Below the pieces are notes generated by a model that had not been told where the DNA came from, did not search any database, and saw only the letters and a list, made by a program, of their open reading frames with translations. Position numbers and translations under genes: made by a program. A DNA stretch of 64,000 bases. It comes from an uncultured virus (IMG/VR IMGVR_UViG_3300008113_011532) (taxonomy: Duplodnaviria > Heunggongvirae > Uroviricota > Caudoviricetes). The stretch lies in IMG/VR virus record IMGVR_UViG_3300008113_011532; one strand, written 5' to 3'. Numbering within the stretch: the stretch's first letter is position 1; every line of letters begins with the position of its first letter. Positions 11,372 to 62,541 of the stretch are shown one piece after another.

Positions 11372-11740
11372 ATGACAAAGGAACAACTGATTGAGAAGAC
11401 GGTCGACAACGACCACGACTTCTTCTGGGACATCTACTGCGACTGCCCCGAAGATTTGAAGATGGAGGTCGTCTACGAGCAGAGCTACGGAGACGGAAAC
11501 GAGTACGTAATAGCAATGGAATTCCCCGAACACGACATCTTCGTGCAGTTAGAAGGGACATACTCGTCTTGGGACTCGCCATACTGGAGCAGAGTCGTAC
11601 TGGCAATGCCATACGAGTTCAAGGAGACGCGCTACAAAGAGGCGGACAAGCAGTACCTGAGGGAAAAGAGTCTGAACGAGGTGCTGGGCGACTTCATACC
11701 CGGCTTCGACGATAACACCGACAAACCAGCGGACGAATGA
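11372..11740 (+). CDS. Hypothetical protein with near-C-terminal tag
   Basis: GTYSSWD; LREKSLNEVLG. Confidence 0.75.
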   Translation: MTKEQLIEKTVDNDHDFFWDIYCDCPEDLKMEVVYEQSYGDGNEYVIAMEFPEHDIFVQLEGTYSSWDSPYWSRVVLAMPYEFKETRYKEADKQYLREKSLNEVLGDFIPGFDDNTDKPADE

Positions 11741-11967
11741 GGCTCTACCCGAAGAAGGACCACTGGCTGAACATACCTGGCCAGAAGAAGGTGAAGCTGC
11801 TTACGAAAGGTAAGCCTTACGAGGCGGTAGTGTGGGATATGCACGGAGTGATAGAGGTCGTCATGATTACGAACGACCAAGGAATAGAGCAGACGTTCTA
11901 CAACAAATCCGACTTTTTGAAGTCGGATTCGATGAGGTGCCAAAGGCTAAAGCAGCTCGGCATCTAA
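11737..11967 (+). CDS. C-tagged small protein (LTxGKxY family)
   Basis: LTKGKPYEA...ITNDQG...MRCQRLKQLGI*. Confidence 0.75.
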   Translation: MRLYPKKDHWLNIPGQKKVKLLTKGKPYEAVVWDMHGVIEVVMITNDQGIEQTFYNKSDFLKSDSMRCQRLKQLGI

Positions 11968-12914
11968 TAGAAGTAACGGATAGAATTCATCACGTCCTCG
12001 TTCTCGAGAACCTGCTTTCTGACCAAAGACTTGATGTAATCGGCGGTACTCGGCCTAGAGTCCGCCATATCCTTCCTGTCCTCGTCGTGTATCTTCACCT
12101 GAACACGTACGTGCTTGCCGACTATGAATTCGCACTCGTACGCAGCAGCCGCGGATGTGCCGGCCATCATGACCTCGCTTATCGGCGCGGCCCACTGCAA
12201 CTTACCATAAGTCTCACTCTGCTCGAACTTCGGTGGATGTGTCCCGGTACCCAGCGACAACACCTCAATATCCGACGCCTTCACACCGTAGGTCTTAATG
12301 GCATCGGCAACCGCCGCCATAGAAGGGTTGTTCACGTATACGCCACCATCGACACACACCCTGTCCTTGCCACCGAAATCCATTTTGTAGGATCTCAAAT
12401 ACGTAGGCGCGGCGGATGTCGCACGACAGACCTTTCGAAGAAGTGCGTCGTATCCTTCCTCGTTAGACTTACGCGATTTGAACATCACCACCTCGTGGTT
12501 CTTTATGTCGTAAGAAGTCACTATACCCGGCTTCAGAAGATCCGACAACTTTAGTTCACCGAAATACTCGGTCAGATTTTTGTCAAGCCCACTCGGCGAA
12601 AACTTAGGCCGAATCCAGTTCCAAGCCCATCTCACCGATCGTGTTATGAAGTTGCCGTGCGGAAAAATATCGTCTGCCTTCGACGTATACAGGTTCATCA
12701 GCATTTCGACCGTAAGATTTGGCGATTTTCCGTCGGACGATCCTAAGAGGCCACATACTATGATGCCTCCGGTTGAAGTACCAACTACCATATCGAACAT
12801 CTCGTGTATTCTCTTTCCAGTCTCAACCTCTATCTGTCTGAGAACCATAAGCGGAACGATACCCCTCAGGCCACCACCGTCTATCGATAGTATCCTGAAC
12901 TTCTTCTTAGCCAT
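11964..12914 (-). CDS. Patatin-like phospholipase
   Basis: ILSIDGGGLRG, GTSTG nucleophile elbow, SAAPTY, DGG. Confidence 0.92.
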   Translation of the reverse strand: MAKKKFRILSIDGGGLRGIVPLMVLRQIEVETGKRIHEMFDMVVGTSTGGIIVCGLLGSSDGKSPNLTVEMLMNLYTSKADDIFPHGNFITRSVRWAWNWIRPKFSPSGLDKNLTEYFGELKLSDLLKPGIVTSYDIKNHEVVMFKSRKSNEEGYDALLRKVCRATSAAPTYLRSYKMDFGGKDRVCVDGGVYVNNPSMAAVADAIKTYGVKASDIEVLSLGTGTHPPKFEQSETYGKLQWAAPISEVMMAGTSAAAAYECEFIVGKHVRVQVKIHDEDRKDMADSRPSTADYIKSLVRKQVLENEDVMNSIRYFY

Positions 12915-13023
12915 TAGACTCGTACTTTTTTATTAACTCCTGGTTCTTAGCGATAACCCTAAGCTTCTTACACAGGTTACCCCTGTTCTTCTTAGGTTTT
13001 CCCTCTTTTCTAGCCTTTGCCAT
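12907..13023 (-). CDS. 38-aa basic peptide
   Basis: MAKARKEGKPKKNRGNLCKKLRVIAKNQELIKKYESNG*; follows TATATATA at 13037-13044; overlaps the patatin start. Confidence 0.5.
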   Translation of the reverse strand: MAKARKEGKPKKNRGNLCKKLRVIAKNQELIKKYESNG

Positions 13024-13139
13024 ACTGTTTTATTTTTATATATAAACTACGGAAAAGCAAAAAATAAACGACGGGGTGCTGTAGAGATAAAGTGAAGCGT
13101 CTTCGCCGAGATGGAAAAATTCAAAAAACAAAGATAGAG

Positions 13140-13469
13140 ATGAGAGAAAAGAACATCAAAAACTCGGACATCGCCGTTACATACTGCGCGATGAACCAGT
13201 ACACGGAAAACCCGTCGGATATAAAACTTCCGATATTCATACACTCCGAGATAACCGACGCACAGACCAAAGCCATCGCACCAAACTTCAGGTCGCCAAA
13301 CGCCGAGGACGGATACGTTTACAGGATAACCGTATCAGGCGCAACATACGAAGAGATAAGCCCGAAACTAAGCATACTGGTCTCAGGTGAAATTTCAATA
13401 CAGGAAATAGTGCAAGTCACCAGGAACGAAGACGGTACCCCACAGAGGGTGGCGAGGACCAGCATCTAG
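13140..13469 (+). CDS. Hypothetical protein
   Basis: 109-aa ORF with coding-like codon usage. Confidence 0.6.
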   Translation: MREKNIKNSDIAVTYCAMNQYTENPSDIKLPIFIHSEITDAQTKAIAPNFRSPNAEDGYVYRITVSGATYEEISPKLSILVSGEISIQEIVQVTRNEDGTPQRVARTSI

Positions 13470-14428
13470 TACCGGTTGAAGAAGTCCCTCTCCACGTCGA
13501 AGGTTGACTGTACGCCCAACTTCTTGAAATCAGACTGAAGCCATTTGTCGGCAGTCCTCCGCCCAGCGTTCTTCAACTTGTGGAGGAAGTTAAGGTCGGT
13601 GCTCATCTTCGTGCTGTAGTTCAGCTTACCTAGCGTCTCGTAGCCCGATATGAGGTGAACGAATATCTCCTTGCTACCATACTTACCGAGATCGAGACCC
13701 TGCCTTATAAGCTCGTTCCTGAGCTGTATTATCTTCATCTCGTTCATAAGCGACGAGTTGAAGCATATCTCGGTCACCCTGTCATTTATGTCCTTAGCGT
13801 TCGTCGGAAGGTAGTTTATGTTGATAGAGTTTAGCTTTACAAGTATCAAATCAGTCAGCCTCTTGTCCATAGCCAGCGGCGAAAGCGGAGGGTTTCCCAT
13901 ATAACCGCCATCCCAGTAGTAGTCATCTCCGATTCTTACGGCCTGGAACATAGTCGGCAGAGCGGTGGATGCCATCACCGAATCCAGCGTTATCTCATCC
14001 CTGGAAAAAAGCTTGCCCTGATTCGTCTTGACATTGGTCGCGTAGATGTGAAGGTCCATCCCACATTCCCTTAGAACTTCAAAGTCGACTATATCAGAAA
14101 CGATCGATCTCAATGGATTGTAGTTCAAAGGATTGAACTGGTATGGAGAAACTACCTGCGTGAAGTACTCAACGAACGGGTAGCTCATCTTGAAACCGTA
14201 CCTCGAAACGTCGGTCCAGAACTTCTCGAGTAGCTCTCGCGCCTTGAGCCTGCCACCAACGTGAAGGCCATACGCCATCACAACCGCGTTTATGGCGCCG
14301 GCAGAAGTGCCGCAAACCGAAAGCACGTTCAGATCCTCCTGCTTTAGCTCAAGCAGTCGGTCGAGAACGCCCCACGTGAAAGCTCCGTGAGAACCACCAC
14401 CCTGAAGAGCCAATCCAACGTTTTTCAT
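13466..14428 (-). CDS. Patatin-like esterase/phospholipase (second type)
   Basis: LALQGGGSHGAFTWGVLDRLL, GTSAG, YWDGGYMGNP. Confidence 0.92.
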   Translation of the reverse strand: MKNVGLALQGGGSHGAFTWGVLDRLLELKQEDLNVLSVCGTSAGAINAVVMAYGLHVGGRLKARELLEKFWTDVSRYGFKMSYPFVEYFTQVVSPYQFNPLNYNPLRSIVSDIVDFEVLRECGMDLHIYATNVKTNQGKLFSRDEITLDSVMASTALPTMFQAVRIGDDYYWDGGYMGNPPLSPLAMDKRLTDLILVKLNSININYLPTNAKDINDRVTEICFNSSLMNEMKIIQLRNELIRQGLDLGKYGSKEIFVHLISGYETLGKLNYSTKMSTDLNFLHKLKNAGRRTADKWLQSDFKKLGVQSTFDVERDFFNRY

Positions 14429-14431
14429 AAA

Positions 14432-18689: not shown

Positions 18690-20087
18690 ATGAGGATCAA
18701 GAAGACATACCACGCCTTCCTAATGAAGGAGGCGAAAATCAGCGTTACCGACGAGCTCGGCCAGGTCCTCGACATAATATCGACAGACACACCTACGGGC
18801 GAAACGAACTGGGCAGACCGAATGAAGTCGCTCATCGGTAACGAGGTAGAGACCAACATAAACTACCTGGACACCAGCGACAACCCAGACATGGTGAAGT
18901 GGAGGGCCGACGACAAGGCGAGCAAGACATACCTGGTATGGATGCCACAGAGGTACTACAAGGCCGCGACGACTGCGGTTGGCGGAAGGGTTCCGGAAGG
19001 CGAAACGACCGGAAGGCTCCTGAGGAGGCTGTCGATACAGGAGGCAGCAAGGCTGCTGAAAGGAGACATAAATGCGCTTCAACAGGCGCAGTACGAGTAC
19101 CAGGAAGGCCACCACATACTGCACCTCGCGTTCAAGGACCGAAAGGGTAGGTCTGAGTGCTTCATATCAGAGAAGTGGTGCAAGAAGTCGCCTTACAGGG
19201 CGACGCCGCAGGAGTTCAGGATGGGCAAGCTTTTCCAGTCGCTTATGACAGCCGCGGGCGAGAAGCCGACGGACGGCGAGGTCGAGAAGTTCCACACCGA
19301 GTACGTCAACGCGGTCAAGAAGCTGAAGAAGATGGACCTGGACAGGTTCGAGATAGTCGAAGGCGAGGAGATAAGGAATTACTACCTCGAGACCTCGTAC
19401 GACGGGCAGAAGCACACGCTGGGAACCAGCTGCATGAGACACACAAGGTGCCAGCCGTACTTCGACATATACACGCAGAACCCTAATCAGATAAAGCTAC
19501 TCATACTCAAATCAAAGGAGGATCCGAACAAGATAAGCGGAAGGGCACTGCTCTGGTACGGGCTGAACGCAAGGCCAGGCGACGACTTCGAATACAAATG
19601 GGGAATGAAAGAATGGCCAACGAAGGCGAACTTCATGGACAGGATATTCGTGTCTAACTCGAAGGACGAGAGGCTATTCAAGGAGTGGGCGATAAGCAAC
19701 AAATTCCTGTTCAAGAAGAACCAGGACCACCTGCCTCAGCCAATCTCCAGGGACATGAAATCAAGCGAGATCATGACATTCTGGATCGAGCTAAAATCGG
19801 GCACGCCCAAAAGCGGCCTGTTCCCGTACATAGACACGATGAAACACTACCAACCAGAGAAAGGAGTCCTGACCAACATAGACCAAGACTGGGGAGACTT
19901 CGACTGGTGGGAGCTGCAGGAGACGAACGGCGGAAACGGCCAGTGCCCGGAGTGCGGCGGGACTGGACAGGCGGAATGCCCCGAGTGCACGGGCGACGGA
20001 ACCATACAGGACGTCGAAGGAGTGGAGTGCGAGTGCAGCCTGTGCGCAGGATCGGGTGGCGTAGCGTGCACCAGGTGCGGAGGCTAA
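18690..20087 (+). CDS. N-tagged protein, SCMR/GRALLW/MDRI/PYxDT family, with DnaJ-type Zn finger
   Basis: Listed motifs plus terminal CxxCxGxG repeats; paralog of 21390..22667. Confidence 0.85.
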   Translation: MRIKKTYHAFLMKEAKISVTDELGQVLDIISTDTPTGETNWADRMKSLIGNEVETNINYLDTSDNPDMVKWRADDKASKTYLVWMPQRYYKAATTAVGGRVPEGETTGRLLRRLSIQEAARLLKGDINALQQAQYEYQEGHHILHLAFKDRKGRSECFISEKWCKKSPYRATPQEFRMGKLFQSLMTAAGEKPTDGEVEKFHTEYVNAVKKLKKMDLDRFEIVEGEEIRNYYLETSYDGQKHTLGTSCMRHTRCQPYFDIYTQNPNQIKLLILKSKEDPNKISGRALLWYGLNARPGDDFEYKWGMKEWPTKANFMDRIFVSNSKDERLFKEWAISNKFLFKKNQDHLPQPISRDMKSSEIMTFWIELKSGTPKSGLFPYIDTMKHYQPEKGVLTNIDQDWGDFDWWELQETNGGNGQCPECGGTGQAECPECTGDGTIQDVEGVECECSLCAGSGGVACTRCGG

Positions 20088-20131: not shown

Positions 20132-20749
20132 ATGATAGTAGGTTTCGAAGATTACAAACACGAATACGATTTCAAAGTCACCGGCGTGATACACGTAGGC
20201 GCTCACTACGGGCAGGAGTACGAAGACTACATAAAGAACTTCGGCGAGGGAATAAAGACACACTGGTTCGAGCCACTCGAAGAACCCTACAACAAACTGG
20301 TAGAGAAGCTATCTCACGACACAAACGCCAAAACCTACAAGCTAGCACTCGGAGACGAGATAGGAACCGCCACAATACACGTGGACTCGGGCAACGAGGG
20401 ACAAAGCTCGTCGCTGCTCAAGCCGGCTATGCACAGAGAGATTTTCCAGCACATAACGTTCGAAAACACAGAGACCGTCGACGTGGCCAGGCTGGACGAC
20501 TTCAACATAACAGACTGCAACGTGCTGGCGCTCGACGTGCAAGGCAACGAGCTTGCGGTGCTGGAAGGTGGCAGAAAGACACTCGAGAACATAGACTACG
20601 TGTTCACAGAGTTCAACACAGTGGAGATGTACGAGGGCTGCCCGTCACTAGACGACCTGGACGCGCTACTCATACCACTGGGCTTCGAGAGGGTCCAGAC
20701 CTGGTACACGCAGCACCACTGGGGCGACGCCTTCTACCTCAAGAGATAA
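20132..20749 (+). CDS. FkbM-family methyltransferase
   Basis: VIHVGAHYGQE, FEP, SSSLL, LDVQGNELAVLEG, WGDAFY. Confidence 0.9.
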   Translation: MIVGFEDYKHEYDFKVTGVIHVGAHYGQEYEDYIKNFGEGIKTHWFEPLEEPYNKLVEKLSHDTNAKTYKLALGDEIGTATIHVDSGNEGQSSSLLKPAMHREIFQHITFENTETVDVARLDDFNITDCNVLALDVQGNELAVLEGGRKTLENIDYVFTEFNTVEMYEGCPSLDDLDALLIPLGFERVQTWYTQHHWGDAFYLKR

Positions 20750-21302
20750 TACTCGAGATCCTCATATCACGCCACTCGGCAGGATAATCCTTACTCACGA
20801 AAAACACGTTCACCCAGATTGATTTGCCGGACTCGGCATCACTCACGTTCTGCCACCAGTTGTTGGGAACCCTACACAGAAAACCCGAGTAGAGGCAGTT
20901 CGCGAAGTCTACCTTCCTTCCCCAGTCGTTGTAGGTGCCACTCGGCCCGACTACCCACCACTCACCCCCGTGGAAAAGTACACCATCGACCACCTCTACC
21001 ATGGTAAGCGTCGCGACTTTGTGACGTTCCACCGTAACACCGGACTGGTAAGTACCCCACCTGGAAAACAACTTAAGATAAGCGACTGCCTGCTCCCGGC
21101 AAGTCCAGTCCACATGAACCTGTGGAGAGGAACGGTAAACAACTGGCGCTCCGGACTCCATCTCACGCAAGACGCGACGCCACGACTTCCTGGTACCGTC
21201 CTTGAAGAACACGTTGAAAACAGAGGTTCGACGGACTTCCTTACCGTCGAACAAGTCGCCAGGCTCGAGAAAATTTCTGTCGTTAATAGGTCTCAAAAAC
21301 AT
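20739..21302 (-). CDS. C-tagged hypothetical protein
   Basis: Ends WRDMRISSIIS; TAGCTTTG 5 nt upstream on the minus strand. Confidence 0.7.
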   Translation of the reverse strand: MFLRPINDRNFLEPGDLFDGKEVRRTSVFNVFFKDGTRKSWRRVLREMESGAPVVYRSSPQVHVDWTCREQAVAYLKLFSRWGTYQSGVTVERHKVATLTMVEVVDGVLFHGGEWWVVGPSGTYNDWGRKVDFANCLYSGFLCRVPNNWWQNVSDAESGKSIWVNVFFVSKDYPAEWRDMRISSIIS

Positions 21303-24029: not shown

Positions 24030-24275
24030 ATGAAACTATCGGAGATATACAAAACAAAAGGCGTGCTGCTCGACTCGGAGCACGAAATAAGGGTCGTAAA
24101 GGAAAGCATGATACCCGAGAAATGGAAGAAAGAATTCAACCAGTTCATGTTCGGGCAGACCTGCGTTATGATGGCCGACGGAGACACCGCCTACTACTTC
24201 CTGGACTTCTTGATCTGGTACAACGAGAACAAGACGCGAATACTGCGAGACGAGGCCATAGATGACATATTGTGA
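24030..24275 (+). CDS. C-tagged hypothetical protein
   Basis: FNQFMFGQTC; ends LRDEAIDDIL. Confidence 0.75.
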   Translation: MKLSEIYKTKGVLLDSEHEIRVVKESMIPEKWKKEFNQFMFGQTCVMMADGDTAYYFLDFLIWYNENKTRILRDEAIDDIL

Positions 24276-26808: not shown

Positions 26809-27168
26809 ATGTGGTTCACAAGCAACAACAACATAGAGCTGAAGATGTACGAGGACTTCCCGTTCAGCGACAAGCACACCGTTGTCAGCACCTACGAGGA
26901 GGCCGACGTCATAACACTGCTCAAAGGTGAGGTGAACATTCCCGACGGCTCGATGGTCAAGATCAACTACATGCAAGCAAAGAAGTTCTTCACGATAGAC
27001 GGAGAGCTGGACGGCGGAGCCTCGTTCACGTCAGGAGAAGTTACATTGAATATCGATTACAGCGTAAACTACACACTAATAGGGCCGACGTACACCGTAT
27101 CGAACACGGACAGGATAGAAGACCTTCCGACGAAGCTAAGGGACATAAAGCTGAACAGGCTGATATAG
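26809..27168 (+). CDS. C-tagged hypothetical protein
   Basis: Ends LRDIKLNRLI. Confidence 0.7.
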   Translation: MWFTSNNNIELKMYEDFPFSDKHTVVSTYEEADVITLLKGEVNIPDGSMVKINYMQAKKFFTIDGELDGGASFTSGEVTLNIDYSVNYTLIGPTYTVSNTDRIEDLPTKLRDIKLNRLI

Positions 27169-38805: not shown

Positions 38806-38926
38806 GTTCTAGTAAATTTTTGTTAGGCTTCGGCCTCCAGATCGCTATGTCCCAAAGCGACGCTATGCGCCACTTCCGTATAAACCTCTTGTTTGTGAAT
38901 AGGTAGTGCGGAAGCGGCATGGCGTC

Positions 38927-40991: not shown

Positions 40992-41231
40992 ATGAGCAAT
41001 GGCTGTAGAAGACCGTGCAAGGAATGCCCTTGGACAAACGAAAACAATCACAACGCGAAGTTCCGCGAGTGGAGCGATAAAATGTCTTCAATGGGCAAGA
41101 ACCAGGCGTGCCATATGGAGACTAGCGACGTCTGGGGCCAGAATACCGAGATAAACCGGACAAACGAGTGCGTCGGAAGGAAACTAATGCGTGAAACAAA
41201 CATAGTAAAAGACAAACCAAAAAACCAATGA
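40992..41231 (+). CDS. Small Cys/His metal-binding protein
   Basis: PCKECPW...ACH...ECVG. Confidence 0.7.
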   Translation: MSNGCRRPCKECPWTNENNHNAKFREWSDKMSSMGKNQACHMETSDVWGQNTEINRTNECVGRKLMRETNIVKDKPKNQ

Positions 41232-42301
41232 TGGAAAAAAAGGACCTAACATCGATACTCACAAGCCACGAGCCGTTGGCAATGAGGTATTTCGCACTAA
41301 AATACGGCACGTTTCCGAACGAGCTGAGCATAGACATAGACGTCGACTGCAAGAACTTCGACACTGAGCTGCAGCAAATACTCGGAGGAGAGCTTCTCGA
41401 GCGATACACAGAGGAGACCATGAACACGCTCGGCTTCGACGAGAACGGCCACAAAGGCGAGAACAGCACCGCGATCGACTACGTGCTGAGGAGGGAAACG
41501 CTGATGAGCATAAACTGGAGAGGCGACCAGATCAAGGTCTTCTTCAAGGCAGCGGAGTGCCCGTACATCGAACAAATAATGACGGCCATCAGGAACTCGA
41601 CCAAGAAGAACGAGGACGAGGCAAACTTCTACATGCTATCCAACGACGGCGGATACCTGTCGCTTCGCAGGATGAACTTCAAGTTCGACGACAAGTACTC
41701 GCTGGAGGACCTCTACAACGACGACCTGATAGAGAAGCAGGAGACAATCGACGACTTCATACACAACGCGAAGTCCGGCCTTATGCTGTTCCACGGAGAT
41801 CCTGGCACAGGAAAGACATCGTTCATAAAGAGCCTCATAAGACACAACGAAGTAACGAAGTTCATATACCTACCGAACCAGATGTTCGGTCAGCTCGAGG
41901 CACCCTCTTTCATAAACTTCTTCGCGAACCACCAGGACTCCATCATAGTAATCGAGGACGCAGAGGCGCTACTGACAGAGAGAAAAGAGGGCAACACTTC
42001 AATATCGACACTACTAAACCTCACTGACGGGATGCTCGGAGAGGCGCTGAGGATAAAGGTCATATGCACGTTCAACTGCGACATCAACCAAATCGACAGC
42101 GCGCTGAAAAGAAAGGGAAGGCTCAAGTTCTCTTACGACTTCAAAGAGCTCACTCTCGAGAAGACCAACGCGCTGCTGAAGAAGGCAGGACACGACCACG
42201 TCGCGAAAGAGCCGATGGTGCTCACCAACATCATCAACTTCGACATCGACCAGTACGAGAAGGAGGAAAAGCCAACAATCGGTTTCACTAACCGTAAATA
42301 G
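41228..42301 (+). CDS. AAA+ ATPase
   Basis: GDPGTGKT, IVIEDAE, LLNLTDG, TFN, ALKRKGRL, terminal IGF. Confidence 0.9.
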   Translation: MMEKKDLTSILTSHEPLAMRYFALKYGTFPNELSIDIDVDCKNFDTELQQILGGELLERYTEETMNTLGFDENGHKGENSTAIDYVLRRETLMSINWRGDQIKVFFKAAECPYIEQIMTAIRNSTKKNEDEANFYMLSNDGGYLSLRRMNFKFDDKYSLEDLYNDDLIEKQETIDDFIHNAKSGLMLFHGDPGTGKTSFIKSLIRHNEVTKFIYLPNQMFGQLEAPSFINFFANHQDSIIVIEDAEALLTERKEGNTSISTLLNLTDGMLGEALRIKVICTFNCDINQIDSALKRKGRLKFSYDFKELTLEKTNALLKKAGHDHVAKEPMVLTNIINFDIDQYEKEEKPTIGFTNRK

Positions 42302-43920: not shown

Positions 43921-44325
43921 ATGAAACTGCACATCGGAGACATATCAATCGACCACTTCGGCGAAACTCACAGCGAGAGCGTCAAGAAGCTCAACAAGGT
44001 AAAGAAGGCGACTATCAAGATCAACTTCTACATCTACGATGACGACGATAAAGGAGGATCCAAAGACTTAGAAATGCTGGAGAAATACAAGGACATCTGC
44101 GAAAACAGAATGCCCAGCAGCATAATATCGTCAAAGCACAACTACAACTGGGTCTTCGAAGGCGTCAGGTTGGTTGATTTCACAATCACAAACAAAAAAA
44201 GAAGCAAGTTCTTCGAAGGAGACATAGTCGAGACTACGCTGAACTTCGAGTTCGACAGCTGCCACGGGACGAACGACCTGAAGTCCGCGCAGAGGCACAT
44301 ACAACTAAACAGCATAGGACTATGA
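43921..44325 (+). CDS. C-tagged hypothetical protein
   Basis: Ends QRHIQLNSIGL; TATCTTGG 4 nt upstream. Confidence 0.75.
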   Translation: MKLHIGDISIDHFGETHSESVKKLNKVKKATIKINFYIYDDDDKGGSKDLEMLEKYKDICENRMPSSIISSKHNYNWVFEGVRLVDFTITNKKRSKFFEGDIVETTLNFEFDSCHGTNDLKSAQRHIQLNSIGL

Positions 44326-45043: not shown

Positions 45044-45252
45044 TGGACGCAATAGAGCACAACAACAGAGAAAGACTGAAGGCGTTCGCCAACGCACCGG
45101 CGAGCGAGATGAGCATCAGGGACAAAATCGCGACCGACGCGATGTCCAGCCTCATCAAGACCATGAACATACACAGCGAGGCAAACCTCGACAAGGTCGC
45201 AGACATCGCAGCTAAGATGGCGGACGAGATGATAAACAGGCTAAGCAAATGA
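45040..45252 (+). CDS. Hypothetical phage protein
   Basis: MSIRDKIATDAM...AAKMADEMI. Confidence 0.7.
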   Translation: MMDAIEHNNRERLKAFANAPASEMSIRDKIATDAMSSLIKTMNIHSEANLDKVADIAAKMADEMINRLSK

Positions 45253-45503
45253 AAGACCAAATAAGCTTCGAGGCCGACGAGGTTCTCGTCGGTCCAGGTT
45301 CCTACCGAAAGGTGGCCGTCGAGATAAAGGCCCACCCCAGGGACGTACTCGACAACTTCACGATTGAGGAGATATTCGAGATAAAAGATCCTGATATTGA
45401 TGACGTGCTAGACAGATGGACGATGGAGCAAGTGCTGGAGCACTACGACGTAGACGACGTGCTGCAGTGGTGTCGTGAAAAGAGGCTCGACGGAATCGTC
45501 TAA
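45249..45503 (+). CDS. C-tagged hypothetical protein
   Basis: Internal DVLD repeats; ends CREKRLDGIV. Confidence 0.7.
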   Translation: MKDQISFEADEVLVGPGSYRKVAVEIKAHPRDVLDNFTIEEIFEIKDPDIDDVLDRWTMEQVLEHYDVDDVLQWCREKRLDGIV

Positions 45504-47606: not shown

Positions 47607-47963
47607 ATGTACAAAGGAAAGATGCTATACACGACACACCCGAAGGACTACAAGACCAACTCGAACGACATACACCTGGGCGTCTACGGGATATTCCACA
47701 CCGAGAAGGTGCTCTGGACGTACCACGTAATATCCTACTACAACAAGGCCAACGGCAGCATGCAGCTCACAGACGACATCTGCGGAAGGTACCTCGACGC
47801 GACATACGACAGCGTGAAATCCTACGGCAAGAGATTCGACACCGTCGAGGACGGCCGCAAGTTCATCGAGGAGTACAAGGTGAAGTGGGAGACAGGGTCA
47901 AACAACACCGCGCAGGAGATTAGAGACAAGAAGATAGACGAACTACTAGACGAGGATCAATGA
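47607..47963 (+). CDS. C-tagged hypothetical protein
   Basis: Ends IRDKKIDELLDEDQ. Confidence 0.75.
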   Translation: MYKGKMLYTTHPKDYKTNSNDIHLGVYGIFHTEKVLWTYHVISYYNKANGSMQLTDDICGRYLDATYDSVKSYGKRFDTVEDGRKFIEEYKVKWETGSNNTAQEIRDKKIDELLDEDQ

Positions 47964-48319
47964 GCACGTTCGGAAAGAGGGCGCTGAAGAAGTGGGACTA
48001 CAACGCCGACAAGTTCCAGGCGAACAGGTTCAACAAGTCCCCGAAGGAGATACAGCTCGCCATACTCGAGAAGTGGTACCCTATCGGCATGACCTGCGAG
48101 AGGAAGGACTACTTCGGAAAATGGGAAGCGGGATACACCATAACGGGCTACTCGGAGCACCTGACATACTACACCGTCGAGACGCGCCGGGAATGGCTCA
48201 TCGTCAACATGAAGTCTGTACAGGAAGGAACTTTCCCACCGCTGGCGCTGAAGCCGGACCAAAACTGGCTGAAGGTACAGAGACGTGACGACAAACTCAA
48301 CAAGCTTGGCATAGATTAG
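47960..48319 (+). CDS. C-tagged hypothetical protein
   Basis: Ends RRDDKLNKLGID. Confidence 0.8.
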   Translation: MSTFGKRALKKWDYNADKFQANRFNKSPKEIQLAILEKWYPIGMTCERKDYFGKWEAGYTITGYSEHLTYYTVETRREWLIVNMKSVQEGTFPPLALKPDQNWLKVQRRDDKLNKLGID

Positions 48320-50703: not shown

Positions 50704-51063
50704 ATGGACTCGAAACAAAGAATAGAAAGATGGGACTGCGTGGCGGTCGTATGCACGGCACCTTTCGAGGGCCTTCAAAAAGGATACACATACAGGGTAA
50801 ACGGATCCGGCTGGCTCGACAACAACTCGGCCACCGAAAAGAAGGGCTGGGGAGTATGCCTGGAGGACGAATGGGTGGGCCTGATTGACGAAGACGGCAA
50901 ATTCATAAAAGGTGGCTGGAAGAAGATGAGAAACAAGCCTTACTCCGAAAGGGTGAGATGGGTCTACGCGACTCTGCAAGAGCTAGAAGAGCACTTCATA
51001 ACAGACCAAGAGAACTACGAGATACACGTGAGAGACGAAAGGCTAAAATCGCTGGGCATATGA
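50704..51063 (+). CDS. C-tagged hypothetical protein
   Basis: LQKGYTYRV; ends VRDERLKSLGI. Confidence 0.8.
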   Translation: MDSKQRIERWDCVAVVCTAPFEGLQKGYTYRVNGSGWLDNNSATEKKGWGVCLEDEWVGLIDEDGKFIKGGWKKMRNKPYSERVRWVYATLQELEEHFITDQENYEIHVRDERLKSLGI

Positions 51064-51323
51064 AAGTGGTCTGCGCGAACCTGGGAGAGGATTTGGGATA
51101 CGAAACCCACAACGAGGCGATTACAATCGGAAAGACGTACCATGTCCATTCACAATGGCAGACATACGATTTAATTCGTTTGAAGGATGGACGTGCAACC
51201 GTAGAGAACGTCATATTGTATTCGATAATCAACGACGAAGGCAAAAGCGTAAAATACAACAAGAGGCTCTTCGTTAACCGCGATGAATGGAGGAATAAAA
51301 GAATAAACGAGCTAGGAATATGA
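51060..51323 (+). CDS. C-tagged small protein (LTxGKxY family)
   Basis: MKVVC...ITIGKTYHV...IINDEG...WRNKRINELGI. Confidence 0.8.
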   Translation: MKVVCANLGEDLGYETHNEAITIGKTYHVHSQWQTYDLIRLKDGRATVENVILYSIINDEGKSVKYNKRLFVNRDEWRNKRINELGI

Positions 51324-51574
51324 GAGTGATGTGCATAAAGAACGAGGACGTAATGCGCATCTTCGGCACCCTTCCGCTCACACCAGGAAAGGTGTAAGAG
51401 GTAATCGCCTTTATGGAAATACCGTTCTCCGCGAACAGACCACTCGACTCCAGAGACACCGTTTACACCGTGATCAACGACGAGGGCGAGGCGAGAATCT
51501 ACTCTGCCGACATACTCAGAAGGCTCAGCAAGCAAGAGGAAAGAGAGCTAAGGCTTAAAAAGATAGGGATATAA
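51320..51574 (+). pseudogene. C-tagged LTxGKxY family gene with in-frame TAA at 51395-51397
   Basis: MRVMC...LTPGKV*EV...VINDEG...ERELRLKKIGI*; the stop replaces the conserved Tyr. Confidence 0.8.
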
Positions 51575-52039: not shown

Positions 52040-52413
52040 GATACAACGACAGGAACTTCTCAAAGTTCCAGGAAAGGCAGAGGAACGGAGACGAACTGGA
52101 AAACTGGTTAAGAGTAAGCGAGAGAAAGATACGAAGGGAAAGAGACCACAGGCACGCCACCTTCTACATGCAGTGCCTCACCAAATTCTTCGAGAAGGAA
52201 TGGTGGCTGGCGCTCGAGACGAGGGACAAAGAGCAAGTGTACACATCTTACTACAACCAGGAGGAGATGCGGAAGGAGGAAGACGATGCACATATGTGGT
52301 CAAACTTCGAGTGGTTCGACACATGGGACGAGTGGAGGCAGCACATCCTCGACACGGTAAAGCCAAACAAGGCAAAGCTAAGAGAGCTCAGGGTCAAGAA
52401 GCTGGGACTTTAA
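52036..52413 (+). CDS. C-tagged hypothetical protein
   Basis: Ends LRELRVKKLGL. Confidence 0.8.
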   Translation: MRYNDRNFSKFQERQRNGDELENWLRVSERKIRRERDHRHATFYMQCLTKFFEKEWWLALETRDKEQVYTSYYNQEEMRKEEDDAHMWSNFEWFDTWDEWRQHILDTVKPNKAKLRELRVKKLGL

Positions 52414-55878: not shown

Positions 55879-56112
55879 ATGGCAAAAAACATGGCGAACA
55901 CCTTCATTCCACCCGGACAGGCAACCATTGGTAATATCCAACCCGACGCGATAGTAGCCAACGGCAAGTGCGTCCTCGGAAACCTCGTGCTCCACGACAG
56001 GAAGACCGGCAAGGAGTGGGAGATATTCATAGAGGACGGCGTCATCTACGCCGAGCCATGGGACAAGGAAGAGCGCCGCGACCACCGCATCGGTAAAGTG
56101 CTTGGTGAATAG
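55879..56112 (+). CDS. C-tagged hypothetical protein
   Basis: Ends RRDHRIGKVLGE. Confidence 0.7.
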   Translation: MAKNMANTFIPPGQATIGNIQPDAIVANGKCVLGNLVLHDRKTGKEWEIFIEDGVIYAEPWDKEERRDHRIGKVLGE

Positions 56113-56622: not shown

Positions 56623-56818
56623 GAAGTTCAGGCAGGCGCTAGACGAGATATCGGCGGGCCTGCTCACCGTAAAGTACACAGGCGACGCGTCGGACATCGG
56701 CAACGAGTTCGGCATACTAATCGGAAAGTTCCTCGACGGCGAGATGGGCTGGGACAAAGACGCGGTCATATCCGGCGTCAAGCACGGCATCTCACTAACC
56801 GACGGTACTCATGGATAG
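56612..56818 (+). CDS. Hypothetical protein
   Basis: GDASDIGNEFG...GVKHGISLTDGTHG. Confidence 0.7.
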   Translation: MDDKKFRQALDEISAGLLTVKYTGDASDIGNEFGILIGKFLDGEMGWDKDAVISGVKHGISLTDGTHG

Positions 56819-57092
56819 CCTTCAGAAGGAGGCGCTGATGCGCAGCGCACAACAGATAATCGACGAGAATACAGCATTCGGTGGCAGCATCGTGACCGAC
56901 GCCACGCCACAAGGGAATCACGAAAAGGCTTTCGACAAAATGGGAAAGACCGACATAGTATGGGCGAACGTCTGGATCAATAACGAGGCACAACCCCACG
57001 ATTATGCCATAACCGGCTGGAGATACCTGAAGAACCTGAACGAATTGATTAAAGAGCACCGCGAGGAAAGAATGAAAGAGCTAGGGATATGA
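56811..57092 (+). CDS. C-tagged hypothetical protein
   Basis: Ends HREERMKELGI. Confidence 0.8.
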   Translation: MDSLQKEALMRSAQQIIDENTAFGGSIVTDATPQGNHEKAFDKMGKTDIVWANVWINNEAQPHDYAITGWRYLKNLNELIKEHREERMKELGI

Positions 57093-57430
57093 TGGAAATC
57101 ATGGAAGTACTTAAAGTAAAGTTTTTAAAGCCTGGTGATTATATATCAACTGCCGGCGAAGAAATTATAGAGCGAGATATTGATTTTGAATATTTATTGA
57201 AAATAATCAGTGATATAGAAACTCAAAAAGCTGGCTTTGGCAAAAGCCTACACAAGGAAGCTTTTACAGGAGTAGACTATCTTGGCAATTTAGTTAAGTT
57301 TTCTTCTTATGTTATTTGGACAGATAATAATAAAATCTATAAGTATAACTTTGATGAAAATTGGATGCCCTTTGATGATGAGTTACTAAGAAGAAATAGA
57401 GAAGAACGGCTTAAAGTGCTAGGGATATGA
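57089..57430 (+). CDS. C-tagged AT-rich hypothetical protein
   Basis: Ends NREERLKVLGI. Confidence 0.8.
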   Translation: MMEIMEVLKVKFLKPGDYISTAGEEIIERDIDFEYLLKIISDIETQKAGFGKSLHKEAFTGVDYLGNLVKFSSYVIWTDNNKIYKYNFDENWMPFDDELLRRNREERLKVLGI

Positions 57431-57666
57431 ACGAGACGATGATATCGAAGCACGACATGATTGACGTCGACGGGGTCTGGCTGCTTAAGGCCGGAAGGAC
57501 ATACGAGACATCGGACTGCCCGACAACACACACACCCAACCTTGAGATAGGACCAAAACTCGTCATCGTCACCTGCGAGGACGGCAAAGACAGGATACGA
57601 CAAAAATCGGACTTCAAGCACATTTACGAGCACAGAGAAGAAAGGCTTAAGGAGATTGGAATATGA
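57427..57666 (+). CDS. C-tagged small protein (LTxGKxY-like)
   Basis: LKAGRTYET; ends HREERLKEIGI. Confidence 0.8.
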   Translation: MNETMISKHDMIDVDGVWLLKAGRTYETSDCPTTHTPNLEIGPKLVIVTCEDGKDRIRQKSDFKHIYEHREERLKEIGI

Positions 57667-57950
57667 TTAAAAAGAGGGAACAAGGTTCGTATTATCATAG
57701 TCTGATGACAAAAGATATGCAAGAGGAATGGCTACAGGAATTCAATAGGTCATATCATGTGAAACAGGGAACAAGTTTAGAAACATTTTTTACTTGGTGG
57801 CGTCATGACTTCCAAGATTTCATTTCGGGCTCGTTTAACTGGAATGAGAAGAAGAGAGGAATCGAATGGTGGGAAGACTATGCCAATACCGACGAATCTA
57901 CAATATTGGCATGGAAGAGAGATGAAACGTTAAAAAATCTCGGAATATGA
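57663..57950 (+). CDS. C-tagged AT-rich hypothetical protein
   Basis: ISGSFNW...GIEWW; ends KRDETLKNLGI. Confidence 0.8.
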   Translation: MIKKREQGSYYHSLMTKDMQEEWLQEFNRSYHVKQGTSLETFFTWWRHDFQDFISGSFNWNEKKRGIEWWEDYANTDESTILAWKRDETLKNLGI

Positions 57951-57985
57951 GAAAAGAACAAACAATCGATGTACTAGGAATATGA
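57947..57985 (+). CDS. 12-aa tag-only mini-ORF MRKEQTIDVLGI
   Basis: ATGA overlap at both ends, exactly bridging its neighbours. Confidence 0.6.
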   Translation: MRKEQTIDVLGI

Positions 57986-58266
57986 AACACATACTTAACC
58001 TCATACGAAACAGCGCCATCTACATCACAATCACGAACCTGGTGGATGTATACCGAGCAGCGACACACAGGCACGACTGGGTGTACTCGAGCCAAGAAGA
58101 GGAAATAGCCTTTGGAAACCAGAGACACCGTATAAAGCTGAACTTCAAAACAAGATACTGTAATAAGTGCGGCACAAAGGAAAGAAAAATACGCGAGACT
58201 TGGGCTCCGTGCTCACTCACAAAAGAAGAGCAAAGAGACAAGAAACTTAGTGACCTGGGCATATGA
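57982..58266 (+). CDS. C-tagged His/Cys zinc-ribbon protein
   Basis: HRHDW...RYCNKCG; ends QRDKKLSDLGI. Confidence 0.8.
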   Translation: MKHILNLIRNSAIYITITNLVDVYRAATHRHDWVYSSQEEEIAFGNQRHRIKLNFKTRYCNKCGTKERKIRETWAPCSLTKEEQRDKKLSDLGI

Positions 58267-58282: not shown

Positions 58283-58603
58283 CTAGATGCCGAGCTCGTC
58301 GAGCTTCCTGTCCCTCTCCTCGGTCAAGACCCACAGCATAGACTCGTGACCGGCCTCTGCCTCCTCCCAGGTGCAGTACCTCTGCTGAAGACCGTCGCGC
58401 GGACCGCCGAAGACCATCGTCTCGAAAAGTATAGGCCTGCCAAGCTCGTCACTGCCGTGCTCCATCGCGAGGAAGACCGTAGACAACTCCACGCCGTTGT
58501 GCTTAGCACGGCCTACGCTCAATCCCATATATTTGGAAAGGACCGCAAAGTCATCGCACGGCACTGCCCGCCTTTCATCGTCCAGTTTGTAGTAGCCAAT
58601 CAT
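58283..58603 (-). CDS. C-tagged conserved phage protein
   Basis: STVFL...PILFETMVFGG...QRYCTWEEAEAGH; ends ERDRKLDELGI; TACATTTG 4 nt upstream. Confidence 0.85.
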   Translation of the reverse strand: MIGYYKLDDERRAVPCDDFAVLSKYMGLSVGRAKHNGVELSTVFLAMEHGSDELGRPILFETMVFGGPRDGLQQRYCTWEEAEAGHESMLWVLTEERDRKLDELGI

Positions 58604-58634
58604 AATGCAAATGTAGTTATTTTATATATACGGA

Positions 58635-59551: not shown

Positions 59552-59553
59552 AT

Positions 59554-60246: not shown

Positions 60247-60253
60247 ATAGTAT

Positions 60254-61660
60254 ATGGGAGCATACGAAGGACCAAACATAGTGACAGCGAGCATGTCATT
60301 TTACGTAGACGCGGCCAACACGAAGTCGTACACCGAAATCGCAAACGGCTGGAAGGACCTCACAGGCAACGTACAGACGCCACTTTCAATGACCGGTACA
60401 AAATTCGTCCCGGTAAACGAAGGCATAGTCAACTTCGACGGCAACCAAGGAAGCTCGGCATCGAACGGTGAGAGCTTCTTCTCAACAAGCTCGAGGACCT
60501 TCGACGTCTGGGTAAGGAGGGAACAGGACGTAAGCACCTACAACATGGTCTGGGGTCTCTGGTTACCTTACCTGGCGATGATGAACACCGAAAAGTTCCT
60601 ATTCTCATATAACATGAACCAAGGATCCGGAAACAATCAAGCGACGCACAACTCTATCCAAAGCTTCGTGGACAACAGGTGGTACCACGTGACCTGTACT
60701 GTCGAATACAACATAGGCGTTTCCACCGTATCGAATATGTACATAGACGGTGAGTTAGACTCCACGATTACAACAGCAAATGTATTAACCACGACAATAA
60801 CACCTACGGATGTTCCTGCAGCACACAACCTCATACTCGGAAACTGGCACCCATCAAACACAAACACGAGGTTCAATGGCTCGATATCCAACTTCAAAAT
60901 ATACGAAAGAGTTTTGAGTGCAGAAGAAGTAAGAAGAAACTACCAGGCACACGTGACCAGGTTCTTGCAAGATATTCCATGGAAGGATATGATATTCTTC
61001 GTAGATGCTGGAAGGAGTAGATCATTCACCAAAATCGAGAACGGCTGGACGGACCTAACACAGAACCAATCAACGCTGCCAATATCAGGTGCATACTACG
61101 ACTCAAGCGGCGGCGGCTCGATCGCGTTCAACGGAATTGCCGGATCGGCATCCACATCGGTAGCCTTCGTCCAGTACGCGGAAATGACCTTCGACGTATG
61201 GTTTAATAGGACTTCCAGCGTTTCACTGAATTGCATCTGGAGCATCGGCAACACCCTACTGCAGTTCGAGGGAACTGGCCAATTCAGGTTCACCTGGGTC
61301 ACGAGATTGGGTGCGGCGTCTACAGGTGCAGGAAGAGAGGTGCTCTCACCTCTGTTCACCTACGTCGACGGGGTTTGGTACAACGTCACAACTACCCTGG
61401 TCCAGAACCTTGTGACCGGACTCTCGACGGCCAAGATGTACGTCAACGGAGAGTTGGTGGCAACAAACACTCCGACGTCGCCTTTGCTTGACCAGGTATG
61501 GCAGTCCACCTCCGGGATAAAAATAGGTTTATTAGGCGTTAACGCGTTCAGGCCCTTCAACGGTAAAGTTTCAAACTTCAAAATTTTCAGGCGCGTTCTA
61601 ACCGACGCCGAAGTCCTTAAGAACTACTTAGCAATGAAGGACCGATTTGGTCATCCATAG
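60254..61660 (+). CDS. Tandem LamG-like jelly-roll protein (two domains)
   Basis: Two repeats of DA..KS...W.DL...TFDVW...WY.VT...FNG.ISNFKI..RVL. Confidence 0.85.
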   Translation: MGAYEGPNIVTASMSFYVDAANTKSYTEIANGWKDLTGNVQTPLSMTGTKFVPVNEGIVNFDGNQGSSASNGESFFSTSSRTFDVWVRREQDVSTYNMVWGLWLPYLAMMNTEKFLFSYNMNQGSGNNQATHNSIQSFVDNRWYHVTCTVEYNIGVSTVSNMYIDGELDSTITTANVLTTTITPTDVPAAHNLILGNWHPSNTNTRFNGSISNFKIYERVLSAEEVRRNYQAHVTRFLQDIPWKDMIFFVDAGRSRSFTKIENGWTDLTQNQSTLPISGAYYDSSGGGSIAFNGIAGSASTSVAFVQYAEMTFDVWFNRTSSVSLNCIWSIGNTLLQFEGTGQFRFTWVTRLGAASTGAGREVLSPLFTYVDGVWYNVTTTLVQNLVTGLSTAKMYVNGELVATNTPTSPLLDQVWQSTSGIKIGLLGVNAFRPFNGKVSNFKIFRRVLTDAEVLKNYLAMKDRFGHP

Positions 61661-61681
61661 AATTCTCCTTACCTTCGTCCT

Positions 61682-62098
61682 ATGGACAAGGAAAGACTAG
61701 AACAGATGATGCTCAGGCTGCAGATGGCAGTGATTGAGATTGGAAGAGGCGAAGGCTTCGACATAAGACTATCGGAACCCGATCAACTATTCTCGGGAAG
61801 CCAGAACACACTCATCGCCAAGATGACAATCACCGAGACAAAACCGGAAGACCACATAGCCAACGAAGCGCTTTGCAGGAAGGTCGGCTTCACACAGAAC
61901 GTAATCGGCCAGTCGTTCACGCAGAACGGATCGCTCTACCGTATCGTCAACATAAAGACCAGGAACAGAAAGTACCCCGTGATCGCCTCTTCCAGACTGG
62001 GAGGGCTGTACAAGTTCTCCGTCGCGACCGTGAAGAGGAACCTCGGCGGCGACCAGCTCATAAACAGAAACGCGAACCTAGACAAACTCATATCATGA
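61682..62098 (+). CDS. C-tagged hypothetical protein
   Basis: KTRNRKYPVI; ends NRNANLDKLIS. Confidence 0.75.
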   Translation: MDKERLEQMMLRLQMAVIEIGRGEGFDIRLSEPDQLFSGSQNTLIAKMTITETKPEDHIANEALCRKVGFTQNVIGQSFTQNGSLYRIVNIKTRNRKYPVIASSRLGGLYKFSVATVKRNLGGDQLINRNANLDKLIS

Positions 62099-62541
62099 CA
62101 ATAGCAATAGTGGCGCTCGCGCTGACGACGCTCATATTCGGTATCTACATCATACACCTACACTCGAAGCTGTCGGACGCGATAGCGGACAAGAACAACG
62201 CAGAGACGCTCACGGCAGCGATGAAGAAAAAGACGACCGTCGAGGTGTCGCCAGGCGACACGGGACTAATACACAACTACGAACTTCAACACAATGGGAA
62301 GGATGGAGAAAAGTATGTATTTAGTGTAGACTTCGAGGTGAGCATAATCGAGATATCCGAGAAGCGACTCAAGGTGAGCGCCATCGACTACACGACCAAC
62401 GACGCATGGGCGAAGGACTCTACAAAGAGGCAGGGGATAATCAACTTCTTCCAGAACCAATGGGTTAAAAGAGACGAGGTAGAGATAATCTTCGACGACA
62501 GGAAGCGCAGGAACGACAAACTAAACGAACTTGGAATATGA
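62095..62541 (+). CDS. C-tagged membrane-anchored protein
   Basis: N-terminal TM helix; ends RRNDKLNELGI. Confidence 0.8.
   Translation: MTIAIVALALTTLIFGIYIIHLHSKLSDAIADKNNAETLTAAMKKKTTVEVSPGDTGLIHNYELQHNGKDGEKYVFSVDFEVSIIEISEKRLKVSAIDYTTNDAWAKDSTKRQGIINFFQNQWVKRDEVEIIFDDRKRRNDKLNELGI

Follow-up and report, generated by a model that had tools for sequence, protein, structure and literature searches.

Several described systems use a short terminal peptide to bring many different proteins to one partner. The ssrA degron, the MuA-type C-motif and the SspB tail of the ClpX system are short portable peptides at the extreme C-terminus, read by one AAA+ machine. Phage T4 has a portable targeting peptide for its internal proteins, an N-terminal signal that is cleaved off by the prohead protease; like the peptides of encapsulins and microcompartments, it is an amphipathic terminal peptide of roughly 10-18 residues that directs its carriers to one shell. 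Clamp-binding motifs (QL[SD]LF, the PIP box and the tails of T4 gp43, gp55 and gp33), short and often C-terminal, gather many proteins on one hub, and the poxviral ankyrin-PRANC/F-box, oomycete RxLR and Dot/Icm C-terminal signals place one short module on a repertoire that turns over and none on the core. Here we describe a portable C-terminal peptide of 9-10 residues, R-[DEN]-x-[KR]-[LI]-x-x-[LI]-G-[IL]-COOH, found in 64 kb of DNA from an uncultured virus of the Caudoviricetes (IMG/VR record IMGVR_UViG_3300008113_011532), a stretch which we call the window. This tag is real, is strongly selected, and marks the accessory proteome of megaphages across a whole clade. It belongs by its kind with the portable terminal peptides, yet it departs from each known system in some testable feature. 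Most genes of huge phages encode small orphans that offer no handle, and a tag common to a quarter of the small accessory proteins gives an experimental entry to them. Through its reader one should learn how the accessory proteome of such phages is organised, timed or disposed of.

The window encodes 93 proteins by our own gene calls (19,731 residues). A strict expression, R[DENH].[KRQT][LIVM]..[LIVM]G[LIVM], matches 13 times, always within 3 residues of the C-terminus and never internally, whereas within-protein shuffles (n=500) give means of 0.000 terminal and 0.03 internal matches. A general expression, R-x3-[LIVM]-x2-[LIVM]-(G[LIVM]|[LIVM]) ending at most 5 residues from the protein end, also takes in the Gly-less form R-[DN]-x-K-[IL]-x-x-[IL]-[IL] and identifies 21 of the 93 proteins as tagged, against a shuffle mean of 0.41 and a maximum of 4. 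About one fifth of the proteins of the window phage are therefore tagged, 14 of the 21 with a tag of the LGI type. The original prediction, made from the letters of the window, had placed such peptides at protein ends, and the excess over shuffled C-termini bears it out: all 21 claimed peptides are present, each at the end of its open reading frame (ORF) or within 4 residues of it, although the coordinates given for them are those of ORF starts and not of the tags. Sixteen end exactly at the C-terminus and five have 1-4 extra residues behind them. Sorted by distance from the protein end, general matches number 21 versus 0.5 expected at 0-5 residues, 2 versus 1.1 at 6-20 residues and 12 versus 11.7 further inside. 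Internal copies had been put forward as an argument against a degron that depends on a free C-terminus. The strings at 5849, 11372, 44322 and 52444 exist and the one at 62538 was not found, but as a class internal copies in the window occur at chance level, and the argument consequently fails.

A nucleotide search of the window against phage records returned no match, and its relatives were recognised at the protein level. The window PrkA is 83 %, 82 % and 67 % identical to proteins of phage records of 642,428, 634,780 and 636,363 bp, and BLAST finds homologs for only 26 of the 93 gene calls in the 642-kb phage LR756502.1, the record closest to the window. We compared the window with this phage and with LR745206.1 and LR756504.1, and used as tag-free controls two huge phages unrelated to the clade, LR756511.1 and Ralstonia phage RsoM2USA (MG752970.1). 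With the general expression, 168 of 971 proteins are tagged in LR756502.1 (shuffle mean 4.0) and 94 of 922 in LR756504.1 (shuffle mean 3.5), while LR745206.1 yields 15 profile matches with a tag alignment. The controls stay near expectation, with 5 of 1080 (4.4 expected) in LR756511.1 and 4 of 480 (1.9 expected) in RsoM2USA. Thus the tag is carried by 10-17 % of proteins in the related 630-640 kb phages and by 10-23 % across the clade with the window included; the set of about 22 proteins first noticed in one region was real but underestimated the scale. RsoM2USA, by our own gene calls, has 6 of 480 proteins ending in DLV and 12 ending in LV, which may be another terminal motif.

The tag comes in lineage-specific dialects. 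In LR756502.1 the Gly is present in 50 of the 168 tags, and the other 118 have the form R[DN]xK[IL]xx[IL][IL], often followed by S; 40 proteins of this phage end in R[DENHC]xx[LIVM]xx[LIVM]G[LIVM], and of the 5 non-terminal copies of that pattern 3 lie 4-5 residues from the end. LR756504.1 uses R-K-x-[KI]-I-x-[END]-L-[LI]-COOH, for example ..YRKSIIEELL, ..LRKNKIDELL and ..IRIEKIENLL; it has no strict LGI tag, and 93 of its 94 tags are Gly-less. Tagged genes in LR756502.1 concentrate at the junction of the record: the stretch at 620-640 kb has 57 genes, 40 of them tagged, and that at 0-20 kb has 55, 21 of them tagged. A 76-residue protein on a 270,756-bp IMG/VR contig (L122:12036-12266, plus strand) ends in ..EIRDIKINQILEDEQ, a Gly-less tag with an acidic extension comparable to that of window ORF 47607-47963, which suggests that this contig belongs to the tag-bearing clade. 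No paper describing such a tag turned up in the literature, and the accessible parts of PMC7162821 and PMC7824862 hold nothing on it; in those parts the latter (Iyer et al.) mentions only phage ClpP and ClpS. As a classifier, the tag marks accessory genes and tells lineages apart by dialect, and it could serve as a portable engineering tag.

What is conserved is the peptide and not the DNA that encodes it. Among the 14 LGI-type tags, Arg is encoded by AGA, AGG, CGT or CGC, Leu by CTA, CTT, CTC, CTG or TTA, and Gly by GGA, GGC or GGG. Where two of these tags share an amino acid they share its codon in a fraction of 0.402 of cases, against 0.372 expected from the codon usage of the window, and nucleotide identity at codon positions 1, 2 and 3 is 0.91, 1.00 and 0.42. 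The window, whose coding strand is A-rich, has a guanine-plus-cytosine (GC) content of about 0.50, and the same peptide is kept at a GC content of 0.315 in LR756502.1 and, as a dialect, at 0.264 in LR756504.1. Since relatives of such different composition retain it, selection acts on the tag peptide, as had been claimed, and codon choice inside the tags is neutral. In eight homologous pairs from the window and LR756502.1, tag identity is 0.57 against a body identity of 0.34. The clade thus covers a wide range of base compositions and, presumably, of hosts.

The carriers are small, fast-turnover accessory proteins, and the conserved core never bears the tag. We defined the core as the 168 reciprocal-best-hit pairs between LR756502.1 and LR756504.1 (median identity 37.6 %). 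In none of these pairs are both members tagged, and only two weak one-sided matches occur. The difference between core and non-core proteins of LR756502.1 persists after matching for size, with 0 of 16 versus 64 of 243 tagged below 100 residues (Fisher p 0.014), 1 of 44 versus 89 of 364 at 100-200 residues (p 0.00018) and 0 of 59 versus 13 of 149 at 200-400 residues (p 0.022), and so the lack of tags on the core is not an effect of size. The tagged repertoire, by contrast, turns over completely between lineages while the tag persists. Ten tagged window proteins have a homolog in LR756502.1, which is tagged in nine cases, but between the lineage of these two and LR756504.1 there is no genuine homolog pair among 283 tagged proteins. 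Membrane-anchor-like segments are equally frequent in tagged and untagged proteins (1 of 21 versus 4 of 72 in the window, 12 of 168 versus 74 of 803 in LR756502.1, 9 of 94 versus 93 of 828 in LR756504.1), from which a reader of the tag should be cytoplasmic and general.

The tag is also portable between bodies. No tagged body matches a Pfam or PHROG family above curated cut-offs, and the window bodies give no BLAST match to each other at E<0.01. The claim that the bodies are unrelated thus stands at the BLAST level, with the reservation that four or five of them share an LTxGKxY motif by eye. The FETMVFGG family, which forms the body of the protein of ORF 58283-58603, has 1115 matches. Among the best 120 of these, 12 are tagged, namely ten close relatives (69-99 % identity) and two at 46-48 % identity (..RDAKIRSLGI, ..RDEKLKQLGL), and 108 end without the tag, stopping shortly after a conserved ..TWEEAEAGH.. 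helix. Because family members outside the clade are untagged, the tag was added to a pre-existing body, in agreement with the original claim of a portable peptide on unrelated proteins. In another case the protein P0244 has only its N-terminal 38 residues in common with the ORF 57427 protein and still ends in ..KRDARIELIL. A second example of untagged relatives was sought in the families of ORF 24030 (8 close matches) and ORF 57427 (8 matches); both are confined to the clade and therefore have none to show.

A model of one tagged protein suggests what shape the tag takes. AlphaFold2 predicts the ORF 58283-58603 protein (from 60 sequences) with a predicted local distance difference test score (pLDDT) of 91 overall and above 90 in the body. 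In this model the last body helix spans residues 79-93, a break falls at residue 94 and the tag forms a helix at residues 95-103 with a pLDDT of about 75. The tag is thus predicted to be a separate short helix that follows the folded body, of lower confidence than the body and not packed into it; no flexible linker precedes it in this one model. Searched against the PDB with Foldseek, the FETMVFGG model gave no match at E<=0.001. Judged from the spacing alone, one face of the helix would hold R1, L5, L8 and the final residue, and helix caps may be seen in the D/N at position 2 and in the Gly that precedes the final residue.

One conserved reader is the natural explanation of this pattern. The dialects and the restriction to one clade suggest that such a reader is most likely encoded by the phage, co-evolves with the tag and should be among the 168 core genes. 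The original prediction had proposed a docking helix that recruits the carriers to one hub, for instance an AAA+ machine. The separate helix of the model and the case for a single reader agree with docking; for an AAA+ machine as the hub there is circumstantial support only, from a ClpC-like protein and ClpP in the relatives and an AAA ATPase with an IGF tail in the window. Tentatively, we put first the reading in which the tag serves the Clp proteolysis machinery of the phage itself as a C-terminal handle. Such a handle would let the phage clear its whole accessory or host-takeover proteome through one switch or, alternatively, would tether accessory proteins to the protease as adaptors. The candidate unfoldases would be the ClpC-like double-ring protein or the single-ring IGF-tailed AAA ATPase, either of them working with ClpP. 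If this is true, it would be the first case in bacteria of a general degron or adaptor system encoded by a virus.

The clade does encode the machinery that this reading calls for, which is a further likeness to the ssrA, MuA and SspB systems. Pfam searches of 158 of the 168 core genes (ten that straddle 20-kb pieces were left out) found a core protein-turnover set of ClpP (224 residues), a second ClpP-like protein, ClpS, DnaK/DnaJ/GrpE, SmpB and an M16 peptidase. The set further includes a ClpC-like protein of 707 residues with a double AAA architecture (AAA, AAA_lid_9, AAA_2, ClpB_D2-small, UVR) and no Clp_N match. A VGF tripeptide is present in this protein in LR756502.1 (..TGVGFMT..) and LR756504.1 (..SVGFAKD..), which we take to be the ClpC-type ClpP-docking loop, and the LR745206.1 protein is 81 % identical to that of LR756502.1. 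Metagenomes hold more than 120 cluster representatives of ClpC-like relatives, at 82-91 % identity and about 705-712 residues, none of them listed with Clp_N. Neither ClpC-like, for which one of the two tag-free phages gives a single weak AAA-domain match (E 2.6e-4), nor ClpS has a convincing homolog in either of them.

The second candidate unfoldase lies in the window itself. At 41228..42301 (plus strand) an AAA ATPase (PF00004, classic clade) with an N-domain of about 180 residues would be a putative reader and ClpP partner. By sequence its AAA domain is nearest to Afg2, Cdc48/p97, Bcs1 and Rpt3, and its family is phrog_14322, of 'unknown function'. The model is confident in the core and disordered in the C-terminal tail (42266..42298, plus strand; pLDDT about 46-55), which carries I351-G352-F353, with I and G invariant in three orthologs. 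The tail ends in ..EKEEKPTIGFTNRK in the window, ..EKDIIEIGL in LR756502.1, ..DDSDVEIGFKI in LR756504.1 and ..ENKKIGF in LR745206.1, and in 78 of 80 IMG/VR loci with relatives of this ATPase [ILVM]G[FLIM] falls among the 14 C-terminal residues, mostly as a final ..KIGF. Known IGF motifs sit in internal loops, unlike this C-terminal one; proteasomal ATPases use C-terminal docking tails (HbYX), to which it may be likened. The IGF tail looks like a means, so far undescribed, by which an unfoldase docks on ClpP, and two unusually built ClpP partners thus seem to exist in the clade. If the Clp reading is true, this coupling of an AAA ATPase to ClpP, by an IGF tail at the C-terminus, would be new.

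The LGI tags themselves end in the same hydrophobic-Gly-hydrophobic pattern as the ClpP-docking tripeptides of ClpX (IGF), ClpA (IGL) and ClpC (VGF), in 14 of 21 window tags and 50 of 168 in LR756502.1. The pockets of ClpP bind such IGF-type tripeptides of unfoldases, according to the abstract of PMC8745299. However, the Gly-less tags (118 of 168 in LR756502.1, 93 of 94 in LR756504.1) lack the tripeptide, so that mimicry of a ligand of the ClpP pocket cannot be what the tag does in general. Other differences from the Clp peptides are plain. The tag ends in LGI or ELL and not in the small nonpolar LAA type of ssrA; it shares the extreme C-terminal position of ssrA in the window, though in LR756502.1 this position is not absolute. 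Unlike Clp degrons and tails, its amphipathic helix is patterned, has an invariant Arg and is present on 10-23 % of a proteome. An SspB-type tail has a long flexible linker, whereas the tag helix follows its body after one kink residue in the model.

Several points weigh against a Clp handle. The case is circumstantial, and the Clp inventory is read from the genomes of the relatives, the view of the window phage being 64 kb. In known degrons the charged positions usually show less of a pattern, and to mark 10-23 % of the proteome for destruction is costly. In LR756502.1 matches 6-20 residues from the protein end number 35 versus 10.1 expected, and tags tolerate 1-5 extra residues behind them, so that a free carboxylate is not strictly required. 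The absence of ClpC-like and ClpS from the tag-free phages is shared by 112 of the 168 core genes; these two very distant phages have only 43 and 38 of the core genes, which makes phylogenetic profiling with them uninformative. The IGF-tailed AAA family, moreover, lies in 72 distinct 16-kb neighbourhoods in which 3 of 1463 genes are tagged against 4.3 expected; being widespread where there are no tags, it is not specific to the tag. Finally, LR756504.1 has a transfer-messenger RNA (tmRNA) of its own (280507-280863, minus strand; 65 bits with Rfam, missed by ARAGORN), whose tag, read from the aligned resume codon, is DNVNSFEQSILNELFAPVEMAVAA, a peptide of 24 residues ending in AVAA. This is a different and classical degron, unlike the shared tag; scored with a position-specific scoring matrix of the LR756504.1 dialect it is at chance, 1686 of 20000 random 24-mers (8 %) reaching its score, and a link between the two was rejected. 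Neither LR756502.1 nor LR745206.1 has a tmRNA above the Rfam cut-off, and ARAGORN likewise finds none in LR756502.1, which does have SmpB; a BLAST search for a second phage tmRNA did not find one.

Individual candidates for the reader were also considered. The predicted complex of the ORF 58283-58603 protein with the ClpC-like unfoldase scores 0.17 and 0.18 against a mark of 0.32, which speaks neither for nor against binding. The N-domain of the window AAA ATPase found no support: it is poorly conserved, BLAST to LR756502.1 aligning the AAA domain only, it is poorly modelled, and its family occurs in untagged neighbourhoods. PrkA, YeaH and SpoVR are very conserved (73-83 % identity to LR756502.1) and were rejected as a specific reader because they are also present in the two tag-free phages. 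A likeness of the tag to the C-terminal helix of ClpP (..ELGVVDEIL) was judged an ordinary part of the ClpP fold, and a likeness to the UVR motif (RDxIxxL) was rejected by eye, its register being off by one residue.

The case for a single reader applies equally to a docking helix for a non-proteolytic hub, such as RNA polymerase, the ribosome, the replisome, a membrane machinery or chaperones, on which the tag would concentrate small modulators. We consider this rather unlikely. The amphipathic pattern with its invariant Arg resembles LxxLL boxes and the MIM1 motif of ESCRT-III, and the phages encode a sigma factor, NusG, S21, EF-G and DnaK/DnaJ/GrpE, any of which could be the hub. No candidate stands out among them, however. 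The MIT domain (PF04212) has no match at E<=0.01 in LR756502.1, LR745206.1 or LR756504.1, while control genomes give matches, and PDZ_2 (PF13180, the sole PDZ model tried) has none in these three phages, host PDZ proteins remaining possible. The absence of the tag from polymerases, nucleases and all other replication proteins of the relatives speaks against a tool-belt of the clamp type, the core pairs, in none of which both members are tagged, including DNA polymerase B pieces, a 5'-3' exonuclease, a topoisomerase and helicases; the tag also lacks the Gln and the aromatic pair of clamp motifs. A very conserved host hub sits poorly with the change of dialect from one lineage to the other.

Less probable still, and in our view unlikely, is the chief rival to the Clp reading, a packaging or sorting signal that loads accessory proteins into the procapsid or virion for delivery to the next host, or into another phage-built compartment. 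If true, it would be a new route of protein targeting. The lineage is T4-like (Portal_T4, Gp23, T4-type terminase, sheath), as would suit an analogue of the T4 capsid-targeting peptide, and the window holds a weak Gp23-like stretch in ORF 52444-53178 (E 8.8e-4, below the Pfam cut-off). A signal that stays conserved while its carriers are replaced completely resembles effector delivery signals, and 10-23 % of the proteome is a typical share for a sorting signal; the PRANC, RxLR and Dot/Icm modules are directed at eukaryotes or belong to secretion systems with known readers, and the likeness to them is in logic only. Against this, the tag is C-terminal in 21 of 21 window cases, unlike the T4 signal. 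Encapsulin and microcompartment peptides follow a flexible linker and are encoded beside the shell gene, whereas the model shows the tag without a linker, and in LR756502.1 the tagged genes lie at 585-642 and 0-40 kb with portal and Gp23 at 222-229 kb. No head gene is tagged, nor do tagged genes flank the head module. The 168 cargo species of one genome go far beyond any known virion, the carriers across the clade number in the hundreds, and some of them appear to be membrane-anchored (as often as untagged proteins), which is a poor fit for capsid cargo.

A variant of the Clp reading, which we regard as quite improbable, takes the tagged proteins as a library of substrate receptors. Their bodies would bind different host proteins, such as defence factors and housekeeping hubs, and the tail would tether them to the phage Clp protease. 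This would amount to a programmable targeted degradation in which tag and reader co-evolve as dialects, analogous to the F-box and PRANC receptor families of eukaryotes and poxviruses.

Harder yet to credit is that the tag has no reader at all and is a self-capping terminal helix that stabilises small orphans or shields their C-termini from host proteases, or is the trace of one huge paralog family. Many tagged genes do stand in tandem paralog arrays, for example seven proteins of about 141 residues at 624.7-629.9 kb in LR756504.1 and the LTxGKxY genes of the window, and the cap-like residues at position 2 and before the last hydrophobic residue fit helix-capping rules. Paralogy is contradicted by bodies that have no similarity to each other and by the untagged FETMVFGG proteins outside the clade; stability alone hardly explains why the Arg is invariant and the spacing fixed in three genomes that differ in GC content, or why the tag is completely absent from size-matched core proteins, and the tag helix, less confident than the body, does not pack into it. 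A DNA- or RNA-level signal, such as a ribosome-binding site, translational coupling to the next gene or a recombination site at cassette boundaries, with the peptide as a by-product, we regard as refuted: nine of the 14 LGI tags end in TGA, most of them as ATA TGA, readable as an overlap with the ATG of the next gene, and tagged genes are tightly packed, but TAA and TAG stops occur as well, as do tags where two genes converge (11967, 58283), codon choice is neutral and third positions vary as described above, and the peptide is kept across the three GC contents in relatives to which the window has no nucleotide similarity.

Along the window, and on the plus strand unless stated, the first tag is RCQRLKQLGI (11935..11964) at the end of ORF 11737-11967. 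It is preceded by ORF 11372..11740, which has the tag-like REKSLNEVLG near its terminus, then an acidic extension of 17 residues, and whose LR756502.1 homolog was flagged as tagged. Two Gly-less tags follow, RDMRISSII with a final S (20745..20771, minus strand, ORF 20739-21302) and RDEAIDDIL (24246..24272, ORF 24030-24275), of which eight close homologs keep RDEAIDDTLA. RDIKLNRLI (27139..27165) ends ORF 26809-27168, RHIQLNSIGL (44293..44322) ends ORF 43921-44325 and REKRLDGIV (45474..45500) ends ORF 45249-45503. In ORF 47607-47963 the tag RDKKIDELL (47922..47948) is followed by DEDQ, and the LR756502.1 homolog is also tagged; in ORF 47960-48319 RDDKLNKLGI (48284..48313) is followed by D.

Further on, RDERLKSLGI (51031..51060) belongs to ORF 50704-51063 and RNKRINELGI (51291..51320) to ORF 51060-51323, whose LR756502.1 homolog is tagged. 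RELRLKKIGI (51542..51571) stands in ORF 51413-51574, which is what is left of a paralog that an in-frame TAA (51395-51397) interrupts. This LTxGKxY-family paralog (51320-51574) has the stop where its relatives have Tyr (..LTPGKV*EV..), and may be a pseudogene or a restart. RELRVKKLGL (52381..52410) follows in ORF 52036-52413. The neighbouring ORF 52444-53178 (plus strand) encodes a protein of 244 residues whose weak match to Gp23, the T4 major capsid family, covers residues 101-178; it has a tag-like RNLLINELLD near its N-terminus and may be a fragment copy of a capsid protein.

A weak tag, RDHRIGKVL followed by GE (56077..56103), is found in ORF 55879-56112, whose LR756502.1 homolog has none. 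A dense run then comprises REERMKELGI (57060..57089, ORF 56811-57092), REERLKVLGI (57398..57427, ORF 57089-57430), REERLKEIGI (57634..57663, ORF 57427-57666), RDETLKNLGI (57918..57947, ORF 57663-57950), RDKKLSDLGI (58234..58263, ORF 57982-58266) and, on the minus strand, RDRKLDELGI (58286..58315) on the FETMVFGG-family body of ORF 58283-58603. Homologs P0241 and P0247 of the ORF 57427 protein are tagged, while P0244 joins a different body half to a variant tag. The last two are RNANLDKLI with a final S (62066..62092, ORF 61682-62098), whose LR756502.1 homolog ends in RNANIERLIG, and RNDKLNELGI (62509..62538, ORF 62095-62541), on a protein with an N-terminal membrane-anchor-like segment at residues 1-24.

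Besides the AAA ATPase, the recognisable gene content of the window includes DNA methylases and a set of host-like metabolic and repair genes at 11964-16849 (minus strand) and 42687-43892 (plus strand), namely two patatin-like phospholipases, a complete PEP synthase/PPDK-type enzyme of 805 residues and a Y-family (IMS) DNA polymerase. The SpoVR, DUF444 (YeaH-like) and PrkA triad (36044-40846, minus strand) is 75 %, 73 % and 83 % identical to the LR756502.1 copies, while the other 23 proteins common to the two phages are far below that, at 23-53 %. PrkA is also present in Thermus phages, Ralstonia phage RsoM2USA and LR756511.1. The proteins encoded at 18690-20087 and 21390-22667 (plus strand) are paralogs of 465 and 425 residues, 32 % identical, with Cys-rich C-termini that are presumably of the CxxCxGxG type; each has 6-8 BLAST matches in LR756502.1 and no Pfam or PHROG family.

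Two observations concern the relatives alone. LR756502.1 carries a full-length GOLLD RNA at about 434.7 kb (plus strand; 275 bits, gathering score 150) that adjoins tRNA arrays. Untagged mini-proteins of 51 residues (LR756502.1, 107771-107926, minus strand) and 43 residues (LR756504.1, 568631-568762) are 50 % identical to each other and match only part of the release-factor PCRF domain (E 5.2e-7).

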